From: Octopus sinensis
Lineage: Eukaryota
Direction of reading: 5' to 3'
Assembly: GCF_006345805.1 (NCBI RefSeq)
Contig: NC_043008.1
Location: 57,536,001 to 57,600,000, forward strand
DNA: 64,000 nt
The notes beneath the pieces are model-generated. The model worked only from the letters and a program-made list of their open reading frames with translations, ran no database searches and was not told the DNA's origin. Of the stretch, positions 1 through 51,466 are shown piece by piece; the stretch's first letter is position 1; every line of letters starts with the position of its first letter. The position numbers and the translations under genes were made by a program.

Positions 1-1108
1 GTAGTTGATCCAGGCCATACTGAGGCCTTTCTTCTTTCTGCGGCTGTCTTCAGTTATGGCTTTATTGATCATTATTTGATCTTTACAGCCATATGAGCCC
101 TTGCAGAATCCCTTCTGCTCTTCTGGAAACGGGTTGTTTTATTCCAGATGCTTGCTCAATCTTTGCGATATTATTGCAGTAAAGGCTTTGTACATTGTAG
201 GGAGACAGGTTATAGGTCTGTAGTTTTGTGGTTTTGTCATTTCATTGGATTTGGGAATTAAGATAGTTTTCCCTTTCATGAGCCATTCAGGCATTGTCTC
301 TGGCTCTGCTAGTATGTTGTTAAAGTTTTCAACCAGCTTTTTGTGTATTCCTGTCAGATATTTTAACCAGAAGTTGGAGATCTTGTCGTGCCAAGTTACT
401 TAGTCTTTGCAATGCCTGGGTGACCTCTTCAGTTGTTATAGGGGTCCAGAGTTGCCCAGATGCTAAGTTTGTTATTTTAATACTCCTTTTTTTTGGCTGT
501 TCGTTCGCCGACCATATTTCTCTCCAGAATTCTTCCAATTCTTCTGCCGTTGGTGCTGCAGTGACTTCTATTTTATTTTTGCCCAGTTCTTGGTAGAACT
601 TTTTGGGGTTGGAGTTGAACTTTTTGTTTTGTTCAAAGAAGCATTGGCGTTTCCCGTACCGGCGGATCCTTTGAGCTTTGGCAAGGATATCTTGCTTCAG
701 CTTTTCTTTTATCTCCGGCAAATCTTTTTCTGTGATGTTATATTTGCGGAGTATTTTTGTTGCTCAGTAGCGTTGATTGTTTGCTGATTTCATTAAGAAT
801 CGACAGATCTTTTCTCATTTTTTGTATTTTGTTTTGGATGTTATTTATCCACAGGGTTTGTTTGGGTGGTGGTACTCCTGTTTGGATGGGTTTGAGTGAG
901 TATCCAGCTTCTTTTGAGGCTGCAGTGGCTGCTGCGTATATTAAGTCATTTAGCTCAGTGATATCGCTTTTTGTTTCAGTGGCTATTAGTTCCGTGACGG
1001 CTAGGTTTATGCTGTTTATAATTGGTGTTGTTGTTTCGTCTATTTTGATTCATTGGTCCATTCTGAGACCTGTGGTTTTCAGTTCTTTAATTATTTTCAT
1101 TTTTATAG
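1..1108 (-). mobile_element. Decayed R4/Dong-like non-LTR retrotransposon, RT N-terminal part; runs off the window start
   Basis: The minus strand reads ...NYRPITCLPTMYKAFTAIISQR...EQKGFCKGSYGCKDQIMINKAI...GLSMAWINY (RT motifs) and ILAKAQRIRRY...QNKKFNSNPKKFYQEL...EEFWREIWS, typical of RLE-type LINEs. Stops and frameshifts are present. Confidence 0.75.
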
Positions 1109-1110
1109 TA

Positions 1111-2248
1111 CAGTCAACTTTCGCTACTATGCCACCCTGCGGGACTGAGCCAAAGTGGCATAGTACCGAGGGTCTGTTATCTAAACACTACATAACCAAA
1201 AATTTACTGAACATACGAATAAAAATTCATAGGGTGGGAAGTAAGGCCAATAAGAAGTTCAATGCAATGGTAAAAAGAAGACATCCAAGTTTATTAAGTT
1301 CAGATTGCTTTTAGTTAATCCCGAAGCTCTCAAAAATTGTCAGCTGACGCATCTTCTTTCGGCGGATTTCATTCATTTCGTTGTCTAGCCTATCACACGC
1401 CTGCATGACGCTGGGTTTTCCGCTGCTCTGCTGCTGCATAAACTTTCGGATAGTGCTCCATGCTCTCTGGGCATCTGCAAACGAAACGTATTCCTCTTCC
1501 GCAATTACCTCATTGTCTTCACTTTCCACCGGCTCTTCGTTATGCATTACTTCTTTTGCTATTTCTTCTAGAGTATAGTTGGTATGAGTTATAGATGAGT
1601 ATACTTGGTATGAGATTATAGATGAGTATCTATTTCTTCTAGAGTGAAAGATCCTCCAGTTACGAGAAAATCAAACAGCTCAATTGTTTCGTTCTCATGT
1701 GTCTTTTCCTCGAGAGGTAAAGCTTTCCAGATCTCGAGCAGCTCAGCATCCTCTGGCTCTATTTGTATTTCCTCTTCAATAAACTTGGCTTTCGCGAAGC
1801 AGTTCTTAATCGTCAATTCACTGACCTGCTCCCATGCACGCCGAGCAATGTGCAGAGTGTCGAGCAATGTAAATTTAAACTCGTTTCCTTCATCCATGGC
1901 TTCGAGACGGTGGGACAGCAAGAGCTTTTTGTAATGGTGCTTAAGATTTTGTATGATTCCTTGATCCATTGGTTGGGAATTTGCTGTTGTGTTGGGCGGA
2001 AAGAAGAGCATTTGGATGTTGTCCAAGTGGACGTCAGAAGGGTGACCAGAGAAGTTATCGAGACAGAGCAACACTTTGCGGTTTTGCTGCCCGAGTTGTC
2101 CGTCCCACGTTTGTAACATTTCTTCAAAAATTTCTGCTGTCATCCACGCCTTCAAATTAGCCTTGTACTTCACAGGGATCTTTGTTCTTAAACGCACTAG
2201 GTTGCTTGGAATTTCCGATCACCAGAAGAGGTAGCTTCTCACTGCCGC
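1111..2248 (-). mobile_element. Truncated Tigger/pogo DNA transposon (DDE_1 transposase remnant) interrupting the R4-like LINE
   Basis: TA|CAGTCAACTTTCGC end at 1109-1124. ORF 1616-2197 contains KAWMT, LLCLDNFSGH, FFPPNTT..QPMDQGII..LK..Y and CFAKA. The C-terminal RQLTIFESF is in ORF 1311-1547. Confidence 0.88.
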
Positions 2249-2680
2249 TTAAGTTTGCTCTGACCAAAAGAGTGATTCTTTGCTTGCTTTTCTTTCCCCT
2301 GTTCTATTTCTGATATTTTTTTTTGCGTTGAGAATATATCTTCGTATGTTAGCTAGTTTATTAGGGTTCATTGCTGTATCCAAGTCTTTATATGTATGTG
2401 TTATTGTGTTTTCGTTCTTTGGGTAGAACACTGCTGTAAAGTAAGCATGTAGGATTGAAATATATTCCTCACATGTCCATTTATGCCTTTTTGGTTTTAT
2501 TTGTGGGACATGAGGAACAACATCTGGGCCTTTATTTTGACGGTCATCATTTTCGTAGGGTACCGGTTTGTTCATTTCTGTTGTTAAATTGTTTTGCACG
2601 TGTAGTTTTTCATACTTTTTGCATAACAAGTTTAAAGTACGCACTTCCCAATTGTTATACTTGGGTCGAATAATACCGGT
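2249..2680 (-). mobile_element. 5' portion of the same R4/Dong-like LINE
   Basis: RHKWTCEEYISILHAYF...NPNKLANIRRYIL resembles the N-terminal region of R4-type ORFs, in the same orientation as 1-1108. Confidence 0.55.
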
Positions 2681-2892
2681 ATCATTTCATCATCATCATT
2701 GTTCGACCCTGGTCAAGACTATGAAATTTACTATGTTACGCCAGACTTCACGGTCCATCATAACATTACTGAGGTCCTGTTGCTGGATGCCTGTATCCCT
2801 GGAGATTACATCAGGGTAGGAGAGTGTGCACCCTCTGGAATCTTGAGCAGATGGCTTCCAGAGGAGAAGTGTAGAAATTGCCTCGTTTTCAG
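2681..2892 (-). mobile_element. 3' end of an RTE/RTEX-like LINE with a (GAT)n tail
   Basis: The minus strand reads ENEAISTLLLWKPSAQDSRGCTLSYPDVISRDTGIQQQDLSNVMMDREVWRNIV, followed by ATGATGATG. This is the typical RTE C-terminus. Confidence 0.75.
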
Positions 2893-2919
2893 GGTACTAG
2901 TAGCGTAGACTGGACCTGG

Positions 2920-3035
2920 TTTGCGCAGACGCGTGTCCGCGCTAGCCAGACGTAGGTAGTTGATCCTACGAGCCGACTGGCGCATGCGCGATATATACTT
3001 GTATCGCACGTGCGCGATACATATTTGTTTGCGGT
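2920..3035. repeat. GC-rich palindromes and hairpins, a candidate viral terminal hairpin remnant
   Basis: CGTAGG-tagttgat-CCTACG, GCGCATGCGC, and TGTATCGC-acgtgc-GCGATACA with the alternative pairing GCGATATA-tact-TGTATCGC. CpG-rich next to very AT-rich DNA. Confidence 0.55.
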
Positions 3036-3315
3036 CAACATAAAATACTATTTTACAGATTAAAATAAATGAATTACTATTTTACAGAATAAAATTAATG
3101 AATTAATTATATAAATTAAATAATTCTTGAAAATTAATTAATATTAATATCTTTTGAACAAAGTAAATAATTTTTTAAACTTAAATAATAATTTTTTTTA
3201 CATAAACGTAACACAAACTTATATAATTTTTACGCGAACGTATATAATTTCTGAAACTTAATTATTTTTTTTTTACAGACATATATAATTTGTTAAACTT
3301 AATGAATTAATTTCT

Positions 3316-4200
3316 TCACACAAATATATAAATAGATTTGAAAACCTTCATTGAAACTTCTGTACTTGCATATTTGCTTGGATCGAATTCCCAGACCATA
3401 TTCTCAAATTTTTGTTTGAATGGCATTGTTAACGTACGTAGCTTAACACATTCGAGCACTTTCTTCATGATGTTATCATACTGTGCGTGACTTATAGCGC
3501 GCATAAAATTCTCGTTGTTAGGCCTATTTAACCAGTAAGATTTCATATCTTGTTCTGATTTAAATGATTTGTTGGTGTAGATATAAGTCAAATAATTAAA
3601 CAAATAAAGTGTTGTTCCTGACTTAGATTTGAAGCATGGTTCGTCGTTATCAATCTTAGTTTTCTCTTTTTCGCTTTCTTTATGTACGTTTGTTGGTTTA
3701 GGTATGTACTCTTTCGTACACCAATGACTGAATTCGCAGTTCAATTCATTCGAACCATGAATCAGTAGTAGTCGTGGTGGTTGACAGAAGTAATTCGCCA
3801 TTGCACTCGGAAATTTTACATTTTGTGCATCCGGTATATATCTTTTTAAATTCGTTGCCTTCTTGTATAGTATTCTTATATATTTCAAAACTTGGTTTTC
3901 TCCTGGTCTTATTTCATCGTTCCATATGATATGGAAATGATTATAAGTATTCCATTCCTTGTTACTGCAACCTGCTGCTTCTGCTTTGTGAAATATTACT
4001 GTGGCCTTATGTATCTTAATAAAATTCAATATCTTCTCATTACAATTAGTTTGTACTCCGTTTTTGAATTCTCCTGTTTCTATATTATGGTCGTTAACAC
4101 ATATTTCATCTTGTAGTATTGGTTCGCTATTGTACACCCACGAGAAATCATCTTCATTAATCCATGGGAATATTAGCATATACATCTTCCTTCCTCTCAT
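3316..4200 (-). CDS. Parvovirus NS1/Rep-like HUH endonuclease without an SF3 helicase (294 aa from ATG 4200; 312 aa if spliced to the leader exon)
   Basis: HUH motif NHFHIIW, catalytic-Tyr-like ANYFCQPPR, and a pre-helicase-like segment KYASTEVSMKVF before the stop. No Walker A motif. The ORF is intact. Confidence 0.75.
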   Translation of the reverse strand: MRGRKMYMLIFPWINEDDFSWVYNSEPILQDEICVNDHNIETGEFKNGVQTNCNEKILNFIKIHKATVIFHKAEAAGCSNKEWNTYNHFHIIWNDEIRPGENQVLKYIRILYKKATNLKRYIPDAQNVKFPSAMANYFCQPPRLLLIHGSNELNCEFSHWCTKEYIPKPTNVHKESEKEKTKIDNDEPCFKSKSGTTLYLFNYLTYIYTNKSFKSEQDMKSYWLNRPNNENFMRAISHAQYDNIMKKVLECVKLRTLTMPFKQKFENMVWEFDPSKYASTEVSMKVFKSIYIFV

Positions 4201-4248
4201 CTGTAATGACAAAATTCGTATAGTAATTATTCATTAACGGTGAGCCAC

Positions 4249-5811
4249 TTATCCTGACCCGACTGTCGTTGTAGTATAATTATGAATACCCATCGGCCAT
4301 TTACATAGATGTGTCTTAGAAGAATTTTGTATGACGCCAGCAGTACTATTCCATACTTGGAATCCTGCAGTCTGTGGACTACCAGATATATATTCGAAGT
4401 CTATCTCTGAATTATATGTTATCGTTACCATGAAACTTATTTTCGATGGGTTATCCCCAGAATCTAGTATCGGTATCGAATCTAATGTTGCTATTGGTGG
4501 AGGATTAGATGGGTTAATAGGCATTTGCGTTAAATGTGTTCTACCTATATTCTCTTTGTCTGCCACTTTGTTAACTCCTAACATTTTACTCCATTTCCCA
4601 TTTTTTGTTGGCGCCCATAAATCATAACTACCATACGTATATGTATTAACGTCTGCTGGTAGCCCATCTTTTGATTTAATTGTAGGTGGTTCGTATGTAG
4701 TATCATATGCATAATAATTCATACCATTGAACCAACTAGGAGTTCTATTAATCCATTGATATCCAGCTGTCTCACCACTATATAAGAATTGTAAATCGCC
4801 CGTATTCAAAACACATAACAATTGTTGTGCATTCATTGTCTGTGATGTAGTTGTAGGTTTAGTGAATCCATTATATTCCCACCAATCCTTTCTGCACTTT
4901 CTTGTTGTCTCTACATGACTTAATAATCCCTCTGTTCTTGTAATAGGACAATTATGTTCAAAATTGTTATTAACATTCCTAGTAGTATATGTTGCTGTTG
5001 GAAACAAAGCATACTTATTATCGACGTAATGTATCATATATGGTCTTGTATTAAATGTTGTACTTGTTGTTGTTGTTCCTTGTACTGTACCTAATTCATC
5101 TGATAACGGTACTATGTTAGATATCTTATAACCACATGATTTCACTCTGAAGTTATTACATGGTGACATATATGTTTCTAACTCTGCATTTGTCATGCTA
5201 GCTTTCAAATTACCATATGGTATATATACACATCTATGTTTTATTGTTAACTTTAGATATGCATCTTCCGCACTAGTAGTAATAAATGTAACTTCGTCTT
5301 GTGGTGTATCGAAACAGTTTATATAATGTATAAACGTTCTTGAGAATTTTTTACTTACAATAGGATTTTGATCTCCTATTCCTGGTGGTTGATCACCAGT
5401 TGCTAATGCTGCCGAACCTCCTGGAGCAGGTCCTACGTGTGGGTCTCCCATATCTATGTCTTGACTTCCTATCCCACTATCTTGTGTTCCTCCTGCTTCT
5501 ACTAAATCTTTATCCGATATATACTCCGCTCCCTTTTCAGCTTGATCTTGTTCGGTTTTCCTTTTTTTATTATATGGTGGTATTATCCAGTTCTTAGTTT
5601 TTATAATATTACTAACGACATACGATGTCAACCCTCCAACTCTATCAGAACACTCGATTAATTGTTTATCTGCTTCTAGTTTGCTAATTTCATTAGCACC
5701 ATAAGCTATATCGTGTTCTCTGCAACAATTATCCAAATCATTAACTGGTTCCCTCTCTAGATCTTTAGTATAAGGTCCACAATAATTATAACCAGGTATA
5801 TGTAAAGGCAT
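4249..5811 (-). CDS. Parvovirus-like capsid protein VP1 with an N-terminal phospholipase A2 (520 aa)
   Basis: PGYNYCGP (Ca-binding loop), DNCCREHDIAY (HDxxY), KKRK NLS and a Gly-rich linker. Jelly-roll segments MTNAELETYM..NFRVKSCGYKISNI, YVDNKYALFP, FLYSGE and NPPPI parallel AAV-type FSPRDWQRL..FRPKRLNFKLFNI, FTDSEYQLPY, MLRTGN and HPPPQ. Confidence 0.92.
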   Translation of the reverse strand: MPLHIPGYNYCGPYTKDLEREPVNDLDNCCREHDIAYGANEISKLEADKQLIECSDRVGGLTSYVVSNIIKTKNWIIPPYNKKRKTEQDQAEKGAEYISDKDLVEAGGTQDSGIGSQDIDMGDPHVGPAPGGSAALATGDQPPGIGDQNPIVSKKFSRTFIHYINCFDTPQDEVTFITTSAEDAYLKLTIKHRCVYIPYGNLKASMTNAELETYMSPCNNFRVKSCGYKISNIVPLSDELGTVQGTTTTSTTFNTRPYMIHYVDNKYALFPTATYTTRNVNNNFEHNCPITRTEGLLSHVETTRKCRKDWWEYNGFTKPTTTSQTMNAQQLLCVLNTGDLQFLYSGETAGYQWINRTPSWFNGMNYYAYDTTYEPPTIKSKDGLPADVNTYTYGSYDLWAPTKNGKWSKMLGVNKVADKENIGRTHLTQMPINPSNPPPIATLDSIPILDSGDNPSKISFMVTITYNSEIDFEYISGSPQTAGFQVWNSTAGVIQNSSKTHLCKWPMGIHNYTTTTVGSG

Positions 5812-5821
5812 GTCTACTCAC

Positions 5822-5875
5822 TTTTAACTTGCTGAGCATATCTGCATCACGTAGCTTCAAATCTTCGTAATTCAT
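5822..5875 (-). CDS. Putative Rep leader exon MNYEDLKLRDADMLSKLK
   Basis: ATG at 5875, then 18 codons, then AAAA|GTGAGT (donor GT at 5821-5820). It is phase 0 and in frame with the ttttgtcattacAG|ATG acceptor at 4201. Confidence 0.55.
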
Positions 5876-5924
5876 CTTTCTTTCTTAGTTGAGGGTTAGA
5901 CGTCATTCTCTCTGGGCTTCCAGT

Positions 5925-6075
5925 AAATAATGACAGTTATTTCTGGCGCCCAGGACTATTTATATCTTTCTTTTCCCGCGTATCAGTATCATATTACATC
6001 ACGTGATCAGCACGTCTGAGCACGTTTTGTTCTAGAATACCACGTCATCAAATATATATCTCTTCTCTGATTGGT
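5925..6075 (-). promoter_or_regulatory. Putative viral Pol II promoter
   Basis: On the minus strand: CCAAT (~6074-6070), ATF/CRE-like TGACGTGG (6047-6040), E-box CACGTG (6000-6005), TATAAATA (5964-5957) and Inr-like TCATT at 5933-5929. Confidence 0.6.
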
Positions 6076-6098
6076 CAATATATGTTAGTTCAAATAGT

Positions 6099-8095
6099 TC
6101 AAATATTCAGCTGGGTGTCTGGAACTTCTAGGTTTTATTTCAAAGCCCTTACCAGAAATGGTATCAACTGATATACGTAGCACATAGTCAGCGACAATGA
6201 TGAAGAGAAACGGGGCGAGTGTGTCTCCCTGCAGTAGTCTGGCTTTGATTGAGAAAGATGATGTTTCTCTATCAGGGTTGAAGACGTATCTGTGTAGAGG
6301 ACCTTGATAGCAGAGATGATTTTGTCTGGAATCCCATAGAGCTTAAGGATTTCAAACTTCTTGTACCTATCTACAGAGTCGAACGCTTTAGAAAAGTCTA
6401 CAAACACCATTGCGAGATCGCGATTTTGATTCTTCAATGAGTCTGCGTAGGCATAGTATTTAGCTCAACATTGAGCGCCCATGTCTGAATCCATTTTGGT
6501 TCTTTCAGAGCAAAGGTTCAACAAAAGGGACGAGACAGTTTAGAATCAGCTTGTTGTACAATTTTGCAGCAATTGACATTAGAGATATACCCCTGTAGTT
6601 GGTGATGAGGGATAAATTGCCTTTTTGGGGTATTGGGATGATTTGAGATTGGTGCCAAATCTTTGGAGCTATAAAAGTGGAAAGTGTGTGATTGCAAAGA
6701 TTGAGCGAAAGTACGTGAAATCTATCATCCTTCTAAATTATAGCTGGGATGTTGTCAGGACCAAATGCTTTCGAGGCTTTCAGTTGTTTAGTGGCTGCTG
6801 TTAGTTCAAATATGGTAAAAGGGGAGGTGTTGATGTCCAGCGTATCTGATATAGGCACACTTGGAAGAGTGGGGTTATCAGGGATTTTGGCATTCTTTCC
6901 AAGAAGGTTTTTAAAATGAGTTGACCAATTTTCTAAATGCTTCTTAGCTGATCCCCCTATTGATTCTAATTGATGACCCAGAATATTTGCCTGATAGGTC
7001 TTTGATGGATTTCCAGGCAAGATGGTGTTTTTTACTAATATGCTCTTTGGATAGTTTGCTAGTTTTGCCGTTGATAAAGTCAACCTCAGCGTTCAAGTAA
7101 GCATCATCAAGATTCTTCTTGGCAGTTATGAGTTGGATCTTCAGTGTCTAGGATGGAGAACGGTGGTAAGCTAGTGATATATACTTTAGATGGTTTCTGG
7201 CTTCAATGACATTTGGAGAATTAGGTTTGCTCTGGCCCCTACTCTTCTTTTTGGGAAGAGTAGCCAGTGCAACTTCCTATGTTGATTTGATGAGGCTACT
7301 GTAAACTTCTTCAATGTTATCAGCATCTATTTCAGAAGTAGACAAAGATTGAAATTTGTTATAGACCTCAATAGTAAATTGCTTGGACATATCGGGGTTA
7401 GACGAGAATTCTTTCCAGTCGATCAGTTTCATCGGATGAGGCTTAACTTTTTTGGATAAGTGAAAACTAAGCTTAACAGTAGCTGATACAATTCTGTGGT
7501 CGAAAAATGAGGTAGTCAATTTGTGCCCTGTCACCAGATAGCTACTTGAATGTCCAAAGTTGTCCTTTTGGTTTCATAAAATAATTGTTGGAGGTGTAAA
7601 GATTAAATTCCTCTAAAAAGTCTTTGAGCATTTCCCCATTCCAATTAGTTTTAGAGTTGAAAGTAAACTTGGTCTCATCGGGTCCTAGTTTAGCATTCAG
7701 ATCACCAGCTATAACTAGAAAATTATGGAGAGGTACTTGCTCAATGGTTGAACAAAGAGTTGTATAAAAATCCTCAATCTCATCTGCCACAGACGAATTA
7801 TGTGGGCTATACATGTATACTAATGTTGTTTTCGGATTTCCATCTATCTCGAGCACCATAATTCTGGGCAAGATTGACTCTATACTCAAGAGAGTATCAC
7901 TAGCTTTTGATGAAAGTAGAAAGCCGATACCTCCAACTGTTGAATTAACAGTATTCTTTGATGCTGAAGAGGTTACAAATTGATAAGAACCGACTTGATG
8001 GTATTTGAGGATGTCGTCAGGGTGGTAGAATCGGTTTTCTTGGACAGCTATTATATCAATGCTGTGTGATTCTGCATTTGCACGAAGTTCTTCTA
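6099..8095 (-). mobile_element. Decayed RTE/RTEX-like LINE (APE endonuclease plus RT up to just before the catalytic motif)
   Basis: IIAVQE, YSPHNSS, IAGDLNAKLG, DHRIV, KAFGPDNIP, NYRGISLMSIAAKLYNKL, QNGF, VFVDFSKAFDSV and LQGDTLAPFLFII...RHPAEYL. Many stops. Confidence 0.88.
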
Positions 8096-8403
8096 TATTT
8101 CATTTAATTTGCCACAAGGGCAGCACACAGAGAGAAGCTTGCGGGCTGGACGCAGACATTAATGGGATGAATGATAATAATGCAAGGATGATAAGGATGG
8201 GAGAAGACGAAAAGCACCCGCCGACTTTCACTTCTCTAAAACATTGTTCTTTTTACTTTTTTATAGAAAACACAATGTCGGATACAATAACTTAACTGTT
8301 AGCAAAGTGAAATCACATGTTTTAACTAGTGTACCAACGAGATCTGGGTTCAAATTTACATTTAAATAACAATAGCTTCTCTCGGCCGGGTTAGTAACGA
8401 AAG

Positions 8404-10560
8404 GGTTAAAGCTCTCTTCAGCCACAAACATTGTTAGTCCAAAGAATTACATTACAATATAAAAAAATATGAAAAGTACATGTAGTGTGTGCTAGTGTTC
8501 CATTCCAGTTTCCTATTCAGGCTACGTTTATCTTCTATTATGTGTGTAGCTTCCGTAATTTGTCTGATTGTTGCGTCTGTTCTACGTGTGGACAAGATTT
8601 TTACTTCTATGTTGTTGATTGAACCCCCGTGTTCCTGCTTGGTGTGTTGGAGAGAACTTAAGGAAGGAAAGAGCTCATCGGTTCTGTACCAACGTTCATT
8701 TACCCACTCTCCTATACTCCATGCCATTTCTCCTACATATGTCGTTGTCTTGTTACTGCATTGTCCCTCTATACATCTTATACTATAGACTACATTTCTG
8801 GCTTAACAGTTTGTGGGCTAAATCTACACACAGTACAGTTCCTATCCGTTCAGGGGGTTCTACCAATTATGGATTTGATAGGGTTGCCTGGCCTTTCTAT
8901 GACATTAATCCTTAGCTTAAGTTTGTCTAGGGCCCTTCTAAAGCGGTACACCAGTTCACCTCTAGGGGTCGCGTTGACGAACATGACACTCTGGTATTTG
9001 TGGCTATCATACCAAGATTTGGCCTTCCCTATTTTCTTCTTTATCCCTTCAATAGTGTTCCATGACTGCTCCTATAGAGTGGGCGTTGAATCCCATTCCT
9101 ATCATTACATAAGATAGTATCAAATTTCTTCATGGCTCCTTTGTATACTCTGATCCTTTCTTTATGGCTGTAACCTGCATGCGGTGAACGAAATGTTGTA
9201 TGTGTCACTTTAACTCTGTAGGCTCGCACATGTGGGACACATTTTGCATTATTCTGACGAGGTCTGCCATCAAAATATTGAATTTGGCATTGTCCGTGAT
9301 GTCTGAGTTCCGGTGAATCAAGTATTTGGAGGCCATAGGTTTGACATAGTATGAATGAAGGATTTGGGTGTTATTATTCTCAGTTTCTAGCCAGAGTTCT
9401 GTGTCTAGTACTGGTAGTCTATGGTTAGGGTGTTTAGTAGGGTAGTCTATCGTGATCTTAATACTCTGGTGGATGGAGTTAGCTATTTGCTGAATGCTCT
9501 CCATAGTATTAGTTTCTATATCAATATTACTCTCTTGTGGGGGGTGCCTTTACCACTATGTTGATATCATTAACATAGCAAGAGTACATGTTCACGAGTA
9601 TGGAGTTCTGTGTTAGGCGTTCCTTAAACCTTCTGTCCACCATACTATGAAAAGGTTGACCACGTCACCGGCGATACTAACGTTGATGGCTGTCCCCTCG
9701 TCCTGGGCATATATTTTATTGTTAAACTTAAACGTGTGGCCTTTTAGGGTAACTCTTATGCTAGCTCCTAATGCATGTGCGATCATTTTCTTTACCTGAT
9801 GGACATTTGAGGGGGTCCATCTGCTCCATCTCTCTATATGGGTCTTCCTAGCCATAGAAGTAATTGTGGGTGGTCTACCTCTTAAACGTCTACTGGGGCA
9901 GAAACTACTAAGATTATGTTTATCTAAGTATTCATTATTACATGTCAGTCTAAGTAGGAGGCCCAGTTCCTCTGTGTTGACATTGCGGAACTCCACCTCG
10001 CTCTTGTTGATCATCTCCACGCACTTCTCCACCGCAAAATCTACGTTGATCGATGGGTATAGGGATACCACATCCATGCTACCCACCATATATCTTGTCA
10101 GGTCGCAAGTGTTGTTACAGTCATTGATCCTGCTGAGGAGATCAGGTGACATCCGGATTATAGGGCGTATGATCATTGAGAGGAAGTAGGAGATCCTGTA
10201 ATTGCTAGCGATATTCGCTCCACAGACTGGTCTTGTTGGTGGTCCTGCTATAGGGTCAGTAATTACTTTATGGTCCTTGCAAAGTCCATACAGTGCCGGG
10301 ATATCATTGTTCCAGGCTTGGAAATTCTTTGCTGTACGTTTCTGGGGTCCCAGAACAATTGTCCACATCATCATATGGGCGTTGAGGACCTTTTCTCTCT
10401 CCTCATGTGCCTGTAAAGTTGTTATTTTTGTATTGGCGATATGAGGTTGCATTGCCTGGATGTAGTTCGGTAAGCTGTCTCTTGACATCCTGCCGGACTT
10501 ATCCGTGGGAAGGCATACCACCTCTCCGTTCCTCGTGCGCTGAATGAGCTTACGTAGGCC
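8404..10560 (-). mobile_element. Decayed Penelope-like element (RT, thumb and C-terminal GIY-YIG)
   Basis: PTDKSG, LYGLCKDHK, TRPVCG, GSMDVVSLYPSI, LPVLD, YVKPMAS, and a GIY-YIG region ending ...RQITEATHI...LNRKLEWN. Confidence 0.85.
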
Positions 10561-10715
10561 ACATGCAGGTTTAATCCCAAGTTGGGCCTCTGTCTCTTAG
10601 TGTATAGTTCTAAAATCTAAGTTTGGTCCTAGCTATAGTGAACTGTGCTTCCATATGGTCATTAGTATGGTTTGAGATGCGGAAAACGGACGTTAAATGA
10701 TGATGAATGATGCAG

Positions 10716-13070
10716 GTCTGTAAGTGTTATTATTGAAATTCATAAAGTTATTTTGGAGAATAAATTTTAGGCCCTTGATGATGAATTCTCTTTTTATTCT
10801 TTCCGGGATCTCATTGGGATATTTATCCAGCCAGAATTTAATGACTTCCAGTCCATATTCATGTGGGATCGTAGTGTAAAGGTTTATTACATCAAAGGAG
10901 ACGATTAAAGTGTCCTTATCGGAATGTTTGGGGAGATGATTTAATAGGTCCAGGTCATCTCTTACAATACTTGGAATGTGTTTCAGTATTGGTTTCAGGA
11001 TGATATCGATAAAGTTGCTAAGTCTGTGTGTTTCACAGTTTGGGGCCTGCCACTATTGGTCTCAGTTTGAGATCAGTGGGATGTGGTATAGCGATGCAGG
11101 TTGAAGTGGACTTTTTGCAAGCTTCTGTAATAATTTCACCCTTGTGTATTTTTGGAAGCCCATAGAGCGTACTGGTTTTGCAATTAAAGTTTATGTAGTC
11201 GCATTCCTTTGCTGTTAAGTCATTCCGGTGTTGGTAAATGACTGCCTTCAATTTGGTCATTGTTTTGGATTGCTGGTAGTCGACTACTCTTTCATAGTAT
11301 GTGGTATCCTCTAAAAGGTGAGATACAGAGTTTTTATATTGCTCAGTATTCATAATAACGACCGTACTACCCTTATCTGCTTCCTTTATTGTGACGTCAT
11401 GATTGTCTCGTAGCATATGGGTGATTTTCCCATTCCCTTTTACTGGTGTTGGGTTTAGGTTGTGGAAATTCACTATAAGAGAAGTTTGAGATGTAGTCGC
11501 AAAATTTGTCTAAGGTTTTGTTTCTGCCTTTTATGGGATTATAGCTGCTTTTGTTACGAACCTTGATTCGTCGTTATTAGTTTCTTTGTCAAAAAATTCC
11601 TCTGTGAGGCGTAATTTCCTGCAAAAGTGTGAGATGTCATCCTGTATTTTTCTCAGGTTAGGGTATTGCGGGGTTGGAGTGAATTTTAGTCCTTTTGAAA
11701 GGATTTCAATTTGTTGTGTTGATAGGTTTAGGTTTGAGAGATTCACTATTTTTGGTTTTTCGGGGTTGGTATCTACCATCTAGTGTCATGGAAACTGATG
11801 CCCTTGCCTAAAAAATTATTCCTGCGGGTTCTTCTGTCTGCAGTATTTTGGTGTGTGTTGTTCTTTACCCCGTTGATATGTTGTCTGCTAAAGAGGTTTT
11901 GGTTGTTCCAGAGTCTGGGTTGTTGGAGTGACTTACTGGAAGAGTTTTGGTTATTCCAGGGTCTGGGTTGTTCGTACTGGGTGTAATGTTGGTTCCTTAG
12001 AGTGGGTTGGAAACCACATTCATGGTCTAGAGGTGAATTCTTATATGTTGGGAGGGAACTCCGAGTTTGGAATGGTTTGGGTTGGGATCTACAATCATAG
12101 TTCAGAGGTAGATTCCTATGAGGTGGGTAGGATCTCTGATTCTGGAGCAATTCTTGTGTGGGCTGGGGTCTACATTGTCTGGTAAAGTTTTGTCTTGTGT
12201 TGGTGGGTGTCTGGGTTCTTTTGATGGGGTTGTAGTCCTGTTATTGTTGCTGTCAAAGTTAGGGGTGGTGTGTGTTTTGTGATTTGTTTTCTTTGCTTTT
12301 GGTGAGATATGTGAATTGAAGTTAATTTTTTAAAATATGGGTTGCTTGTACGGTGTTCATTTTTGAACTCTGTTTCATAATTGGCGAACCAGCTGTTTTT
12401 TTCTATTCGTTGGAGGGATGTTAGTTCTTCATCCTCGCAGTTTTTTCCCCAGAGTTTGGTGGTTTTATCAAAGAGTGCTCCTTCACAGTGTTTTGAGATT
12501 TCAATCTGCATTTCATTGTCAAGGGTCTTGAATTTTTCTTCACTAGCATTGGCTCTGAGCTGCAATAGTTCTATTTCTGTTTTGAATTTTTCGAAAGCTA
12601 GTTTCTCCCTGAGTTTTTGTTGATTTTCTGGTTCATTTCGGATGGGCTTTATTTGCAGTTTTTTGGGTAGGATGATTGGGGCGGAGTTGAGCCACTTTTC
12701 ATAAATGTCTGCTTTGTTATTATTTTTTATGAAGTTCCAGGAAGCAAATTTGCGTGCTTTGAGATTTTTAATCCAGGTGTTTTTAACTGAGTAACAGTCT
12801 GTAGTATGTTCCTGCTTTGGAGGTATTGTTGTCTCTATAGATTTGATTAGATTTTGTAATGTAGGGGTGATGTCAGGGGTTTGATTGGCTGCTTTAGCCT
12901 CTAGGAGTCCATATATATCAAATAAAATTAAAAACAGAACACAAAGGATATCGCAGTACATGTGTTTCAAGCTTTATGATCAATCCGTTATTACATCAGT
13001 GTATTATTGATATAAAAGATGGTTTAAAGCTCTCTTCAGCCACAAACATTGTTAGTCCAAAGAATTACAT
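10716..13070 (-). mobile_element. Second, different Penelope-like element (5' region, long N-terminus and partial RT)
   Basis: IVNLSNLNLS...LSKGLKFTPTP, KEADKGSTVVIM, YGLPKIHK, LRPIVAGP and SFDVINLYTTIP. A hammerhead motif lies at the 5' end. Confidence 0.85.
12952..13044 (-). ncRNA. Type I hammerhead ribozyme-like motif (Penelope-associated)
   Basis: TGTGG-CTGAAGA-GAGCTTTA...TAAAGCTT-GAAAC-ACAT-GTA-CTGCG. The core is intact, stem II is 8 bp and stem I is wobble-rich. Confidence 0.7.
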
Positions 13071-13213
13071 CACAGAGATGTACTTGCATAGCAAGTGATT
13101 TGATCTGAGATCGTGTGCTGAAACGAAAACAATTGCAGCGTGGAAGGTGTTTGTAAGCCAGTTAAGAAACACACAAAAGCCGTTCGATTCACTTCAACAT
13201 TTAAGTTTAATTG

Positions 13214-13258
13214 GTCAAAATATTTTCGTCGCTTTAAGACCGTGACCTGTTCACTGAC
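13214..13258 (-). ncRNA. Minimal hammerhead-like variant (G3-C8)
   Basis: GTCA-GTGAACA-g-GTCAC-ggtcttaaa-GCGAC-GAAAATATTT-TGAC. Confidence 0.45.
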
Positions 13259-14214
13259 AAAAATCCGTGCTGCATCTGAGAAAGTAACAGTTCGTTATAT
13301 ATATATGTATGTATGTATGTATGTATGCATGTATGTACATACGTGCGCATGTGTGTGTGTGTGTGTATGTGTATATGCACGCACACACACTATAAACTTA
13401 ACGCTATAAACCTGTAGTGATGGATAGGTGTAGACTGACCACTCATTACATCAAATTTCAAACCCCCCCCAAAAACTAGGAAGTGATTTACGACCCTTAC
13501 CCCCACAACAAAACTCTAAAACCTATTATCAGCCACTTATCTCTATATCTCAAAACTTTTGTTTTACTTTTACTTTTCTTTTTTTTTCCTTTACATTTAG
13601 TTAGTTCAAGTTATATATATCTACGTATGTATGTGTGTATGCACATACGTACGCATGTGCGTATGTATGTGTGTACATGTACGTGAGTATCTAGGAGAAT
13701 GGGCAGACGTCTGTGTGTGCGTGTACTGGTATGTGTCCGTCCAAGTTGTGTACATGACTGTTACTTTGTTGAAGGTTGTATATATACACACATGTTTATA
13801 TAGACGCACACACACATATGTGTGTGTGTTTGTCCCTCATCATCATCTAACGGTGAATGGATACAACGTTTAGGTGCAACTGTGCACATATAGCCATATA
13901 CATATACACAAGTACACACAATCATATAGACACACTCATATATGCTTATTCACTTCTACATACAAAATACGACACAGTATTCAAGGGCAACGGTTAAAAA
14001 TCGAACATGCATTATATTAACCTATCTGCTCTTTTTTTTATATATGCATAAACGCATACATACATCCATACATACTCATATGTGCATTTTTTTATAGCAC
14101 CACATACGTACCAAACAACGTACGCTCATACGGTTACATATAACTGCACATAAGTGTTTTAGCACCACGCATTTCAACATGTATGTAAGGATTACATGTA
14201 AACGAGAGAGAGGG

Positions 14215-15690
14215 GTGGTTATAGAATGGTCCTCCTGAATGGGATTTGGATGTCACTCCATTCGGATTTTCGGTTGAGAGTAGGTTTGTATTCTTGTATG
14301 CAAACAGCTTCTGTGACCTGTCTCAACATTGCATCGGTGGGATGTGTTGATAGGATGTTTAACTTAAGTTTCCCTAAGGATCCCTTGTGGCAGTCTACAG
14401 CATGCTGATAGAAGATAGTTTGGTTTCTTTTCAATGTAGTTGTCCAGATGTTCTTTGAACCTATCATTGATACTCCAAGAAGTCTCACCTATGTATGGCT
14501 CTGGGTTAGTCGCGCAAGCTCCTTCTTAGCACTCAATTTGGTATACAGTGCCCTTGGTTTTGCAGTTCACATGTGGGTTCGTCTCACCTATGTATGACTC
14601 TGGGTTAGTCGCGCAAGCTCCTTTTTGGCACTCAATTTGGTATACAGTGCCCTTGGTTTTGCAGTTCACATGTGGGTTTGTCTCACCTATGTATGACTCT
14701 GGGTTAGTCGCGCAAGCTCCTTCTTGGCACTCAATTTGGTATACAGTGCCCTTGGTTTTGCAGTTCACATGTGGGTTTGTCTCACCTATGTATGACTCTG
14801 GCTTAGTTGCGCAAGCTCCTTCTTGGCACTCAATTTGGTATACAGTGCCCTTGGTTTTGCAGTTCACATGTGGGTTTGTCTCACCTATGTATGACTCTGG
14901 CTTAGTTGCGCAAGCTCCTTCTTGGCACTCAATTTGGTATACAGTGCCCTTGTTTTGCAGTTCACATGTGGGTTTGTCTCACCTATGTATGACTCTGGCT
15001 TAGTCGCGCAAGCTCCTTCTTGGCACTCAATTTGGTATACAGTGCCCTTGGTTTTGCAGTTCACATGTGGGTTTGTCTCACCTATGTATGACTCTGGCTT
15101 AGTCGCGCAAGCTCCTTCTTGGCACTCAATTTGGTATACAGTGCCCTTGGTTTTGCAGTTCACATGTGGGTTTGTCTCACCTATGTATGACTCTGGCTTA
15201 GTTGCGCAAGCTCCTTCTTGGCACTCAATTTGGTATACAGTGCCCTTGGTTTTGCAGTTCACATGTGGGTTTGTCGAACGTACTGCACAATTACTTTGAC
15301 ACGTGATTCTATCAAATGGATATGATCTGCATAATGCAGATTTGATAGTCCTACCTGTCTTTTCTACAACCTTGATTTTTAAGGCCAGTAATGCGCAGGA
15401 TTTTCTTGAATGCCTTAGCTCGTTCTTAGGTGTGGCATCAACGAACATTACCCCGTGAAATTTCCTGTTATCATACCAAGTATCGTTTCTCTTCCTTTTG
15501 TTGGTGTCTCTCTCTAACCTATTCCAGAACTTGTTGCGGTATAGGGTGGCATATACCATTTTCGTCGTCCCTTAGAATGCGTTCGAATCTTGCTTTCGCT
15601 CTTTTGTGCACTCTGACTCTATCGTCTTGTGTGTATCCGGAGCATTGCATTCGGAATATGTAGTGCTGCATGTGTTGTTGTCGTTCTTGT
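14215..15690 (-). mobile_element. 3' part of a Penelope-like element with an amplified GIY-YIG segment
   Basis: GVMFVDATPKNEL, IKVVEKTG, VYQIEC...YIGET and RQVTEAVCI...LNRKSEWS. Related to 8404-10560. Confidence 0.85.
14482..15275. repeat. 99-bp tandem repeat, 8 copies, encoding NPHVNCKTKGTVYQIECQEGACATKPESYIGET
   Basis: gtctcacctatgtatg recurs at 14482, 14581, 14680, 14779, 14878, 14976, 15075 and 15174. Confidence 0.95.
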
Positions 15691-16764
15691 GGTTGGCATA
15701 GTGGGTTCATTTCTTTAGATGCTACATTAGACATAAAGGCCTTCACTACCCTTATAGAAAGCCAGAAGAAACCCCAAGTTATATTGGTTAAATTTTTACA
15801 CCCACAATTAAAGTTAACCACCTCTAACCCCTGCAGCAACACGAAAAGCCACCATTATTCAAACAGTGCAACCTGTCTATCCCATAAAACTCAATTTTTC
15901 CCATATTCCTCACCATGGCAACCAAACGGTAGCCCCGAGTGACTTGCAACCCTCCTCACACCATTGCCCACCCCATTTTACTCCCCAGTGTAAATTTTGG
16001 CACCAATCCGACCCCATCTACCGCCCCTTCAACCATTCCCAACCCAAAATGAGACAAATAACCAAGAAATCAAAAAACTTTTTCACATTTCAGCTTTAAA
16101 AGATATTGATTTATATTCAATGTTGGCTTAAATGTAATTTGTTGAATTTTCACTTTCATTGTTTAAGATCATGCAATTTTATTAAATGAAATTTTATAAT
16201 TTGCATCAAATTGTTTGAATTGTATTTATATTCTTTTCCCAAATGTGTAAAGACAAAAAAAAAATAAAATAAGGTCTTCTGGAAAATAAAATCATTGTTT
16301 CAATTTAATTATTGACTTCTGTTTTTTTTTGTTTTGTTTAACATCGTAGTCTTCCCAGAAGCAAGCAGACAATGGTGTGTTGCTCCTGTCTCTATTTAAG
16401 TGTTAAATCTCTTGTCTAATGTAGTACCAATTACATGTCCCTCCATCCACTCAACTAGTTGTGATTTGAGATCTGATCCTCCAACCCATCAGGGAATTCC
16501 TAACTTCAAACAGGAATCAGCTCGGACCATGACAACCAGCACCAAAAAAGCAGGTGTCAAATGATTTTTGAAGATCATTCATTTATTTGCTTCCTTTTAA
16601 AGTATTATTTTGATTTAAAGGAACAAGTCTTGGGTTGACCAGGCCAGTTTGTCTGTGGGGGAGAAAAAAAAAAGAAATATTAAACTCAAGTTTAAGCAAA
16701 CTTCATTTTAATTCTTTAATATTCAGATTACTCTGTCAAAGTGAATAAGTATGTGTGGATATAC

Positions 16765-19009: not shown

Positions 19010-19735
19010 TTTTTATTGCCCACAAGGGGATTAAGTTGATTACATCGACCCCAGTGCGTAACTGGTACTTTATTTATCGACCCCGAAAGGATGAAAGGCA
19101 AAAGTCGACTTCGGTGGAATTTGAACTCAGAACGTAGCGGCAGACGAAATACCTATTTCTTTATTGCCTACAAGGGGCTAAACATAGAGGGGACAAATAA
19201 AGACAGACAAAGGGATTAAGTTGATTACATCAACCCCAGTGCGTAACTGGTACTTTATTTATCGACCCCGAAAGGATGAAAGGCAAAAGTCGACTTCGGT
19301 GGAATTTGAACTCAGAACGTAGCGGCAGACGAAATACCTATTTCTTTATTGCCTACAAGGGGCTAAACATAGAGGGGACAAATAAAGACAGACAAAGGGG
19401 ATTAAGTTGATTACATCGACCCCAGTGCGTAACTGGTACTTTATTTATCGACCCCGAAAGGATGAAAGGCAAAAGTCGACTTCGGTGGAATTTGAACTCA
19501 GAACGTAGCGGCAGACGAAATACCTATTTATTGCCTACAAGGGGCTAAACATAGAGGGGACAAACAAAGGGATTAGGTCAATTACATTGGTCCCAGTGCG
19601 TAACTGGTACTTTATTTATTGACCCCGAAAGGATGAAAGGCAAAGTTGACTTTGGCGGAATTTGAACTCAGAACATAACGGCAGACGAAATACGGCTAAG
19701 CATTTCGCCTGGCGTGCTAACGATTCTGCCAGCTC
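19010..19735 (-). repeat. Tandem array (~185 bp x 4) of SINE family B
   Basis: cccagtgcgtaactgg recurs at ~19050, 19235, 19421 and 19592. The SINE head is at the 19735 end. Confidence 0.9.
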
Positions 19736-29730: not shown

Positions 29731-29874
29731 CAGAATCTTCATCTTCTGATTCTGTGTCAGAGTCTTGTTCTTTTGTAACTGTTTTCCCTGCCTTGTTCTT
29801 GGACTTTCCAGTTATTTCCATGATGTCATCCACTGGGTGTAAATACATCAGTCCTAATGGATATGGATTGGAAC
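29731..29874 (-). CDS. TPGS2: TPGS2 exon 4: SNPYPLGLMYLHPVDDIMEIT...DSDTESEDEDS
   Basis: ttacAG/GTgaga, phase 1-1. PLGxM motif and acidic stretch as in the human protein. Confidence 0.88.
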
Positions 29875-30778
29875 CTGTAACATTCATATAAGAACGAGAA
29901 TTAAGGAATAAACAGATATTCTACACCACTATACTACATCATTGATACCGCCCATTACAGTACCACACTGCTTCTAGAGTGCTACACCTAAGCACCAACA
30001 CTTACCACTATCATACCTATTTCTTTACTACCCACAAGGGGCTAAACACAGAGGGGACAAACAAGGACAGATAGACGGATTAAGTCAATTATATCAACCC
30101 CAGTGCGTAACTGGTACTTAATTTATGAACCCCGAAAGGATGAAAGGCAAAGTCAACCTCGGCGGAAATTGAACTCACAACGTAACGGCAGATGAAATAC
30201 CGCTTGGCATTTCGCCCGACGTGCTAATGATTCTGCCAGCTCACCGCCTTAGTGCCAGCTCGCCGACTGCTGTAGTATACTATTGTATCAAAACATACCA
30301 TGACTATACCACTACATTCCAACACCACTACAATACAAACCACTTACTTGCACTTGTACTTGTGGTGACATTCACCCTGGGCGGGTTGAGTCGGCTTCTT
30401 CTACCACCCTCTTGTGAGAATTCAAGGAAGAAGTCTCGTAGGAATATGTGGATTTCACAAGCGGTCCCCAACAATCCCGCATGTAGAGACATCCTGTTTG
30501 CCGCAGATTGTCCGCAGACGCAGGGACAGAACGACCGAGGAGCTGCCGGTTGCCGAAACTGACACTCCGAGGATTTTCACCAGAGCCCCATCTGCTGGGT
30601 TGTAGCCCTAATGCCACTCGGTGTCAGACCAATCCGTCTATTAAAATTAGTACTTATTTATAAACTTAGTTTTGAATTAATCATGACTTTGATGATATGA
30701 TTGTTTATTTTTAGAATGACATTGTAGGGTAAGTGTGAGAGGCTGGATCTGGCAGGTTTAAACATAAAACAGATAAAA

Positions 30779-49679: not shown

Positions 49680-49748
49680 TTAGCTGCCCTCTCCCCGTAC
49701 TGTCAAAAATGACAGCTGATTGTAGTATTTTACATATAAAGAACACTG

Positions 49749-49819
49749 GTGGTGGTGGTGGTGGTGGTGATGATGATGATGGTGAGGAGGAGGATGGTGA
49801 GGATGACGATGAGGATGAC

Positions 49820-49876
<57 letters not shown>

Positions 49877-50805
49877 GATGATGATGGTGAGGAGGATGAG
49901 GATGGTGATGGTGAGGATGACGATGATGATGATGGTGATGATGGTGATGATGATGGTGATGATGATGGTGATGGTGATGATGATGGTGATGATGGTGATG
50001 GTGATGATGGTGATGATGGTGATGATGATGGTGATGATGATGGTGATGATGGTGATGGTGATGATGATGATGATGATGGTGATGGTGATGATGATAAGGA
50101 GGAGAAGGAGCACAAACCTCTGCCAAGGCAACACCAACGTCAGTGGAGGCGCAATGGCCCAGTGGTTAGAGCAGTGGACTCGCAGTCGTAAGAATGCGGT
50201 TTCGATTCCCAGACTGGGCCTTGGCAGAGGTCATAAGGACAAAAGATAGATTATGGATGGTGAATCAAATTAATACATTTGTCAATGTTATCTTTTGATG
50301 TTGTCTTTTGAGATGTGACATCGATCATCATTTGTTACTGAAAGAACACTGGTTCACACATTACAAATGTTTACATACTTCCCGGGCAAAAGAATGCAGA
50401 GTTTGAGCAAATTACATCCCACGAAGAACTCAAAATAACAACTGATTGGAAAAGCATAAATCCATCCAATCTGTGCAAGTATGGGAACTCCTTCTCCTCC
50501 TTATCATCATCACCATCACCATCATCATCATCATCATCACCATCACCATCATCATCACCATCATCACCATCATCATCACCATCATCACCATCATCACCAT
50601 CACCATCATCACCATCATCATCACCATCACCATCATCATCACCATCATCACCATCATCATCATCATCATCACCATCATCACCATCACCATCATCACCATC
50701 ATCATCACCATCACCATCATCATCACCATCATCACCATCATCATCATCGTCATCCTCATCGTCATCCTCACCATCACCATCCTCATCCTCCTCACCATCA
50801 TCATC

Positions 50806-50853
<48 letters not shown>

Positions 50854-50913
50854 GTCATCCTCATCGTCATCCTCACCATCCTCCTCCTCACCATCATCAT
50901 CATCACCACCACC

Positions 50914-50946
<33 letters not shown>

Positions 50947-51006
50947 GTCATCGTCATCGTCATCCGCACCATCACCATCCTCCTCCTTCTCCTCACCATC
51001 ATCATC

Positions 51007-51040
<34 letters not shown>
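49749..51040. repeat. Inverted pair of complex (GAT/GGT)n microsatellite blocks (49749-50110 and 50487-51040)
   Basis: The distinctive end gatgataaggaggagaaggag and the internal gaggaggatggtgaggatgacgat pattern appear reverse-complemented in the second block. Confidence 0.9.
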
Positions 51041-51466
51041 TTTTGCACCCTCTCCTTTATGTAAGCAAGGGAAGAGTAGGACATTTTGAAGTATCGCTCT
51101 ATGTCTGGATGCCCATCTTTATGCCAAACTTTTTAGCCAACTCTTACAACATGTAGGGGATACAGCAAACCTATTCTAAAAAAAATAGGTTACTTACTAA
51201 TATAAAAACGGTGATGGTGGTGGTGGTGGTGATGGTGACAATGATGATGATGATCTTTCATGATGACTCTTACATGCATCTCTCTTTCCATCTCTCTTTC
51301 TTGGCATTTATTCAACTTCATTGCAGGCTCTGTATTCATAGACATTAATGTGACTGAGATGTCACATTCCCTCATTCCCTCAAATGCTGGAAGACTGTCA
51401 TTGATAGCTCTGTTCCAAAGATCTTGTTTTTCTCCAGCATGAGAAAGGCAGTGATAGATAAAACAC

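Follow-up and report, generated by a model that had tools for sequence, protein, structure and literature searches.

Why do the coding remains of several transposon types, together with pieces of a virus, lie almost all on one strand at one locus of the Octopus sinensis genome? The question was raised by a first-pass annotation of the window, the 64,000-nucleotide stretch of contig NC_043008.1 (positions 57,536,001 to 57,600,000) analysed here, which proposed that its first 15.7 kb may form a unistrand piRNA cluster of the flamenco kind. The coding orientation reported there was borne out: by profile matches and tblastn, 1-15.9 kb contains seven coding elements, all of them minus (a Tigger-split LINE, a pogo/Tigger element, an RTE-type LINE, a viral insert and three Penelope-like pieces), a result with p=0.016 for this part by itself.

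The SINE-poor and minus-biased segment of the window (1..15900) is only the right end of a transposon nest of about 94 kb (C12:57.458-57.552 Mb). The left edge of the nest is some 77.6 kb before the window begins, just past where the last exon of DNA polymerase eta, a plus-strand gene, ends. The nest consists of broken transposons and two parvovirus-like pieces, most of them in one orientation. The adjacent upstream DNA, which the annotation had named as the place to check for strand bias, passed that check: 26 of 30 coding blocks there, found by tblastn with a protein library derived from the same loci, are minus and 4 are plus (p=6e-5), although tandem duplicates mean that the blocks are not all independent insertions. 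Over the whole nest the count is 31 minus versus 4 plus (n=35), the four plus-strand blocks, Penelope blocks among them, sitting in the upstream part. Control blocks gave 25 plus and 40 minus, and the genic DNA flanking the nest shows no bias (3:4 on the left, 1:3 on the right). Protein-coding cover reaches 37% in the nest versus a control median of 6.5%. The ratio of 26:4 upstream thus makes the nest strand-biased rather than purely unistrand; the strong bias in the original proposal stood, and its pure single orientation did not.

The scarcity of SINEs in the first 15.7 kb was also confirmed. High-copy repeats cover 0.0 of 1-15,690 versus 0.305 of the remaining window, with a short high-copy remnant near 13.0-13.2 kb, and they make up 0.8% of the nest; among 30 random 20-kb blocks the median is 10%, and one block has a cover of 0.01 or less. 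Under a laxer rule (3-kb windows with cover below 10%), 4 of the 30 controls count as repeat-poor over 17 kb; a lack of SINEs on the 16-kb scale is thus not in itself rare. These repeat-poor controls fit a neutral origin, in which nested insertion and local duplication produced a functionless nest too recent for SINEs, as do the tandem duplications inside the nest and the 90-94% identity of two elements to other copies (the median for nearest SINE copies is 88%). Such an origin is nonetheless highly improbable, given that eight element classes share one orientation once duplicates are collapsed (22 of 26 upstream blocks minus after collapsing by hand, p=5e-4) and that the pattern repeats on other chromosomes, with strand counts of 16:0 in the C14 nest and 15:1 or 15:2 in the C16 nest.

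The elements within the window can be followed from its left edge, and all are minus except for one inverted-repeat end to which no strand is assigned. A LINE fragment (1..1104), which we take to be R4/Dong-type, lies on the 3' side of a Tigger insertion, and its ORF at 329-763 matches an RT-bearing ORF in L121 with 229 bits. The inserted pogo/Tigger-type transposase fragment (1105..2248, ends read from the sequence) matches DDE_1 at 1616-2218 (E=2e-32), and the 5' part of the split LINE follows at 2249..2686, clustering with an ORF that precedes the LINE of L121. The RTE-type LINE has its 3' end, including a short tandem tail, at 2687..2892, as recognised from the sequence; contigs of all four runs diverge from the window sequence at 2892. 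The next segment (2893..3315) belongs to a high-copy inverted-repeat (MITE) family, of which it represents one end; the family gave 64 matches and 650 candidates with paired inverted arms. The family is probably Merlin-type, judging from 9-bp target duplications in two copies (L150 and L152) and from a third locus (L069) in which similar arms flank an IS1595-type transposase. No matching right end of 2893..3315 was found, the sequence to its right being unique. The same segment had been considered as a viral telomere; this was ruled out, since the hairpin-like left end belongs to the transposon family. Beyond the viral block, which interrupts the RTE-type LINE within its RT domain, the body of that LINE (6099..8100) has RVT_1 and Exo_endo_phos matches. 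Three Penelope-like elements complete the series: the first at 8452..10596 (profile match E=1.3e-9 for 9616-10596), the second at 10693..12973 (E=1.8e-24 for 10696-11052; like the RTE-type LINE, one of the two elements with close copies elsewhere), and the third at 14230..15854, identified by a tblastn block at 14255-14555, with no Pfam match of its own and with a 99-bp x 8 tandem array at 14482-15275. To the right of the nest, an exon-like minus-strand ORF was seen at 29.5-29.9 kb of the window, for which look-ups gave no identity.

In the viral insert a capsid gene precedes NS1, with 48 nt between them and both on one strand; the viral part of the window, 3,316-6,098, is single-copy. The capsid ORF (4249..5811) carries an N-terminal PLA2 domain (Phospholip_A2_4, E=7e-13) and matches the capsid of Penaeus monodon metallodensovirus (E=5e-9), the nearest one with a solved structure, and its relative P0002 matches IHHNV_capsid; a fold model of the capsid was discarded at a pLDDT of 30. 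The NS1 ORF (3316..4230) is an N-terminal half that stops before the helicase. It is 56% identical to the C16 copy, which runs on into the Parvo_NS1 helicase, and 34% identical to P0009, a full NS1; Parvo_NS1 (SF3 helicase) matches were obtained in sister copies. The helicase of the C10 locus is 87% identical to the O. bimaculoides NS fragment A0A0L8GWZ8, listed in the supplement of PMC5013282. Capsid precedes NS1 in three copies (the window, a second C12 copy and C16), and poly(A)-like ends follow NS1.

Upstream of the capsid lies a putative viral promoter and leader (5812..6098, minus strand), with CCAAT at 6074, TGACGT at 6047, an E-box at 6005, TATA at 5964, an 18-codon leader from 5875 and a GT donor at 5821; a polypyrimidine-AG acceptor is found at about 4201, in the NS1 ORF. 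Predicted splicing between these sites would put the capsid gene inside an intron, and none of the contig joints listed fits this predicted intron. Terminal hairpins or ITRs of the virus were not found, and the inserts may lack their ends; no free-living relative with gene context was confirmed in viral contigs or metagenome contigs. The virus shares with the Parvoviridae an SF3-helicase NS1 (in the sister copies), a PLA2-bearing capsid and the poly(A)-like end of NS1, but its VP lies upstream of NS on the same strand, the reverse of the usual order, whereas a review describes NS on the left and VP on the right in all parvoviruses (PMC11357303). This order, present in the three copies, suggests a parvo-like lineage whose genome plan falls outside that review.

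Viral capture in the nest, also part of the original proposal, extends beyond the window and is repeated at other loci. The nest at the window holds a second parvo-like insert, which like the first has the majority orientation, and similarly co-oriented nests around relatives of the NS gene occur on three other chromosomes, together with two weak cases. Four of seven NS loci lie in large nests, two in small or weak ones and one (C5) outside any co-oriented nest, and the C10 zone reaches only 11:5 (p=0.21). None of five capsid-only loci is in a co-oriented nest; at the one at C1:103.0 Mb, three neighbours are on the strand opposite to that of the viral piece. Across five zones, the majority strand carries 37 of 37 DNA-transposon blocks, 5 of 5 LTR blocks, 12 of 12 viral blocks, 20 of 26 LINE blocks and 14 of 18 Penelope blocks, and neighbour strand concordance in controls is 16/39. 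DNA transposons are not known to prefer a strand on insertion, and their complete co-orientation points to selection on an RNA.

The genes next to the nests suggest where such an RNA might begin. The exons of the Pol eta gene, including the last, are on the plus strand and end at -78.1 kb, and the 4 kb past the last exon contain no AATAAA and two ATTAAA. The plus-biased C16 nest follows the last exon of DONSON, a minus-strand gene, at a distance of 2.6 kb, and a plus-strand AMP-binding gene (acyl-CoA synthetase) precedes the C1 locus by 5 kb. Wherever a neighbour gene could be identified, at three nests, the nest starts 2-5 kb behind its last exon and is antisense to it. Over 3.2-13.0 kb, one run (X1; 61 million letters, presumed RNA) yielded eight contigs, 0.4-1.4 kb long and near-identical, that run across element junctions as well as the viral promoter region. 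In two other runs, X5 and X9, depth is zero over 3,521-5,280 with the flanks covered, and no contig joins across, so neither the absence nor the silence of that stretch is shown. Contig depth increases rightward, and the presumed RNA runs have an excess of A>G that is matched by one of G>A; no weight was placed on either.

This geometry and the X1 contigs would fit equally well if a long plus-strand RNA, read-through or non-coding, served no piRNA function and sense insertions were purged from it, as in long introns, because they carry poly(A) and splice signals. Transcription is then the sole extra step required. We consider this unlikely: it leaves unexplained the pile-up of all coding classes and viral pieces, with its high protein cover, while SINEs are excluded, as well as the uniform strand of the DNA transposons, and the flanking genic DNA is unbiased. 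A piRNA cluster that has its own promoter or expresses both strands, independently of a neighbouring gene, has still less to recommend it. The plus-strand Penelope blocks and the promoter-like motifs of the viral insert would suit it, as would the three of six nests (C10, C14 and C27) at which no neighbour gene was found among 300 of 399 filtered ORFs. Against it, each of the three genes that were identified ends on the side from which an antisense transcript would have to begin, and faces the nest, an arrangement with a chance of about 1 in 8.

We therefore favour, with some reservation, the reading that the 94-kb nest behind Pol eta serves as a single-strand piRNA cluster fed by read-through, the plus-strand gene ending at its left edge being the likely source of the antisense transcript. 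RNA polymerase II would continue past the weak 3' end of Pol eta and cross the nest on the plus strand, giving a long RNA antisense to the fragments, and from its processing we infer piRNA production. Insertions landing antisense would be retained, it is proposed, because they add silencing guides, and sense ones would mostly be lost; viral RNA copied by the LINE machinery, or viral DNA, would insert likewise and provide guides against the virus. Octopus possesses Piwi and somatic piRNA loci (PMC12479628).

The closest known systems are the core clusters of Aedes, Culex and Anopheles, which have a read-through geometry and trap antisense endogenous viral elements (10.1101/2022.08.22.504762). 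Like the octopus nest, they start directly behind a protein-coding gene oriented as the inferred precursor, span tens of kb and contain antisense transposon fragments and antisense non-retroviral viral inserts. The octopus case differs in its mollusc host, its trapped DNA virus and its upstream genes (Pol eta, DONSON and an AMP-binding enzyme), and its read-through and piRNAs are predicted. Flamenco and flam-like clusters of flies are also large, strongly strand-biased nests predicted from sequence, and small-RNA sequencing confirmed those predictions; they extend over 227-1,085 kb, with a bias driven by Gypsy LTR elements (PMC10643416). LTR elements account for only 2 of 35 blocks in the octopus nest. 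The mosquito cluster is thus a closer model than the flamenco comparison first proposed, because it is LINEs, Penelope elements and DNA transposons, not Gypsy, that dominate, and 4 of 35 blocks run opposite.

A broader proposal, which we put forward tentatively and hold to be possible rather than probable, is that octopuses possess mosquito-like read-through piRNA clusters downstream of housekeeping genes, in which mRNA of a DNA virus, once retrocopied, is kept as a heritable source of antiviral guides. The virus would then be an undescribed capsid-first parvo-like lineage, with splicing across the capsid gene giving access to NS1. The exact loci and their upstream genes are named here, and the read-through layout can be tested at them against existing octopus small-RNA data. 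Co-oriented DNA transposons combined with an absence of SINEs may provide a sequence-only signature for clusters in unannotated genomes, and the same layout in a mollusc, if true, would mark a general route of piRNA-cluster building in animals.

The transposon fragments at the left end of the window (G000:C12:57,536,001-57,600,000) proved to be the right end (1-15.9 kb) of a pile of some 94 kb, the nest, whose left edge lies at about -77.6 kb (negative coordinates being upstream of window base 1). These edges were placed by eye, and a fixed rule instead gives -57.5 to +14.5 kb. The DNA examined comprised 200 kb upstream of the window, 50-100 kb around the other viral copies and 30 random 20-kb control blocks. 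As the first-pass annotation had claimed for the first ~15.7 kb, all coding elements there are on the minus strand (7/7 in 1-15.9 kb; p=0.016 taken alone), including those that we presume to belong to the R4 and Tigger subfamilies. The bias continues in the upstream part, which that annotation had not covered, at 26:4 minus (p=6e-5), or 22:4 (p=5e-4) after observed duplicates were collapsed by hand. Comparison with a protein library of Pfam-anchored frames from all fetched loci gave 31 minus and 4 plus coding blocks in the nest, covering 37%, and 40 minus and 25 plus in the control blocks, with a median cover of 6.5% and a maximum of 25%; because the library contains the loci's own frames, cover is overestimated, and to a greater degree in nests. 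The left and right flanks split 3:4 and 1:3, without the bias of the nest.

The near-absence of SINEs, also remarked on earlier, holds over the 93.5-kb nest, where high-copy repeats cover a fraction of 0.008 (control median 0.10) and microsatellites 0.004 (control median 0.038); the AT skew is -0.117. High-copy cover of <=0.01 occurred in 1 of 30 control blocks, and under a laxer rule 4 of 30 were repeat-poor across 17 kb. The nest could be neutral and simply young, since two of its elements match other copies at 90-94% identity whereas nearest SINE copies have a median identity of 88%, but age accounts for the SINE poverty only in part, some SINE matches reaching 99%, and we regard this explanation as very improbable. 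The nest is a real, non-random feature.

Several structural details can be added. Locus L006 (-4149 to -165) is a young minus-strand LINE insertion with long open frames of 572 and 477 aa, bracketed by a 315-bp direct repeat of 99.4% identity. Tandem arrays inside the nest have units of ~99 bp (window 14482-15275) and ~108 bp (L007-L008, -21.3 to -18.7 kb), both in Penelope coding sequence, ~85 bp (L012, -65.3 to -61.7 kb) and ~24 bp (L013, -77.6 to -77.0 kb). A 47-bp direct repeat read from the sequence (window 8407-8453 and 13025-13071) flanks two central Penelope-like elements. In the right flank are long tracts of (ATC/TGA)n, together with arrays in which a 184-bp SINE unit is tandemly repeated (window 49747-51041, 19022-19693 and 51516-52984).

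The nest does contain the viral insert previously proposed. Its capsid frame (4,249-5,811) carries a PLA2 domain, with the Penaeus monodon metallodensovirus capsid as best solved relative (E=5e-9), and frame 3,316-4,230 corresponds to the N-terminal half of the parvoviral replication protein NS1, being 56% identical to a copy on C16 that extends into the Parvo_NS1 helicase. The viral block interrupts an RTE-type LINE, whose RT domain is cut at 6,099; the other side of the block adjoins an end of an inverted-repeat family of high copy number (2,893-3,315). A high-copy MITE family here (window 2893-3006; also L149-L153), whose inverted arms measure ~112 bp and whose target duplications are 9 bp long, probably belongs to the Merlin type; in the C14 and C16 nests, Merlin blocks are common. 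A second viral insert, on the same strand, lies at -38.5 to -39.7 kb.

The gene order of the inserts is unusual, running from capsid to NS1 in three copies (the window, the second C12 insert and C16); all parvoviruses have NS left and VP right according to PMC11357303. The capsid start in the window is immediately preceded by a TATA box, an 18-codon leader and a GT donor, and an AG acceptor, in phase with the donor and also found in the C16 copy, lies 48 nt beyond the capsid stop. From only one donor and two acceptors, we infer that a splice skipping the capsid gene may give access to NS1. A poly(A) signal and A-tract follow the helicase within 500 nt in 4 of 7 copies tested (background 57/3,000), and the C10 copy lies between 67-bp direct repeats; these features suggest retrocopying of an mRNA whose last gene was NS1, and they argue against a head-to-tail concatemer junction. 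The window copy is more likely DNA-derived, because it includes the promoter region. In P0017, a public relative, the helicase precedes a nuclease-like part. This inversion of the normal NS1 arrangement hints that another host may have tandem or circular forms.

Searching the genome with the viral helicase produced 11 matches, spread over seven loci; among named proteins, the closest to the C10 helicase is an Octopus bimaculoides entry (87% identity). The viral family was already known in octopus, since an NS fragment is catalogued in PMC5013282. With zones delimited by the fixed rule, C16 has 55 kb in which 15/16 non-viral and two viral blocks are plus (one further opposite fragment appeared in another comparison), and C14 has 35 kb with 16/16 blocks and four viral blocks minus. 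The C10 zone (46 kb) is 11/16 minus (p=0.21) with its viral block minus, the C27 zone (7 kb) is 5/5 plus, C1 is a weak case, and the rule finds no nest at the C5 NS locus. Across C12, C16, C14, C10 and C27, the majority orientation is taken by 37/37 DNA transposon, 5/5 LTR, 12/12 viral, 20/26 LINE and 14/18 Penelope blocks, not all of them independent; neighbour concordance in control blocks is 16/39. None of five capsid-only loci examined, of seven further ones, falls within a co-oriented nest, and the viral piece at C1:103.0 Mb lies on the other strand from its three neighbours. At G000:C4049:18,500-24,750 (L182, L183), three tandem capsid-like copies on one strand are 27-41% identical to the window capsid, and no NS gene was detected beside them. 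Intronless ankyrin-repeat frames lie on the majority strand within the C14 nest (G000:C14:52,365,000-52,378,400; L070-L072).

A plus-strand Y-family polymerase gene, with DNA polymerase eta as its best PDB match, terminates at the left nest edge; IMS is encoded by exons at -95 and -90 kb and UBZ by the last exon, which reaches -78.1 kb. The 4 kb past that exon contain two ATTAAA and no AATAAA. On C16, the nest is plus-biased and its first block lies 2.6 kb from the end of a minus-strand DONSON gene; the minus-strand viral piece on C1 follows the end of a plus-strand AMP-binding gene by 5 kb. Thus 3/3 identified neighbours are directed towards the nest and antisense to what it contains. No neighbour genes came to light for C10, C14 and C27 in a scan of 300 filtered frames out of 399 (33 loci plus the window), which would miss short exons. 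A minus-strand exon, with its GT donor, probably lies at window 29731-29890; if so, the genes on the two sides of the nest converge on it.

Sequencing run X1 (60.6 million letters in all, by our guess RNA) contains contigs near-identical to window 3,212-3,995, 4,759-6,150, 6,715-7,181, 7,240-8,374, 9,463-10,654, 10,796-11,671, 11,984-12,397 and 12,454-13,038. Several span element junctions, and one crosses the viral promoter region into the LINE. Because so small a run contains single-copy nest sequence, the contigs suggest, on that guess, that the nest is transcribed, on a strand they do not specify. Such a transcript might have no piRNA role, which we think unlikely, and a piRNA cluster with its own promoter or two active strands is more improbable still. 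In run X18 (probably DNA, and possibly the source of the assembly itself) the viral insert occupies one contig at depth 21.

In the literature, mosquito core clusters begin directly behind genes and capture antisense endogenous viral elements (10.1101/2022.08.22.504762), and flam-like clusters were detected by strand bias, driven by Gypsy, and then validated (PMC10643416). Piwi and somatic piRNA loci are present in O. bimaculoides (PMC12479628), and piRNAs of molluscs are reported, with octopus only as a protein source (PMC6128900). A search conducted mostly outside subscription papers returned nothing on octopus clusters that carry viral inserts or on a capsid-first order. The nest is a candidate, as yet unproven, for membership in the read-through, virus-trapping type of piRNA cluster, as a mollusc variant. 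Beyond the geometry and content observed here, we consider it fairly probable that read-through from the Pol eta gene would yield a plus-strand precursor across the nest, that this precursor would be processed into piRNAs, that antisense insertions would be retained by selection, and that the captured viral copies would supply extra antiviral guides.
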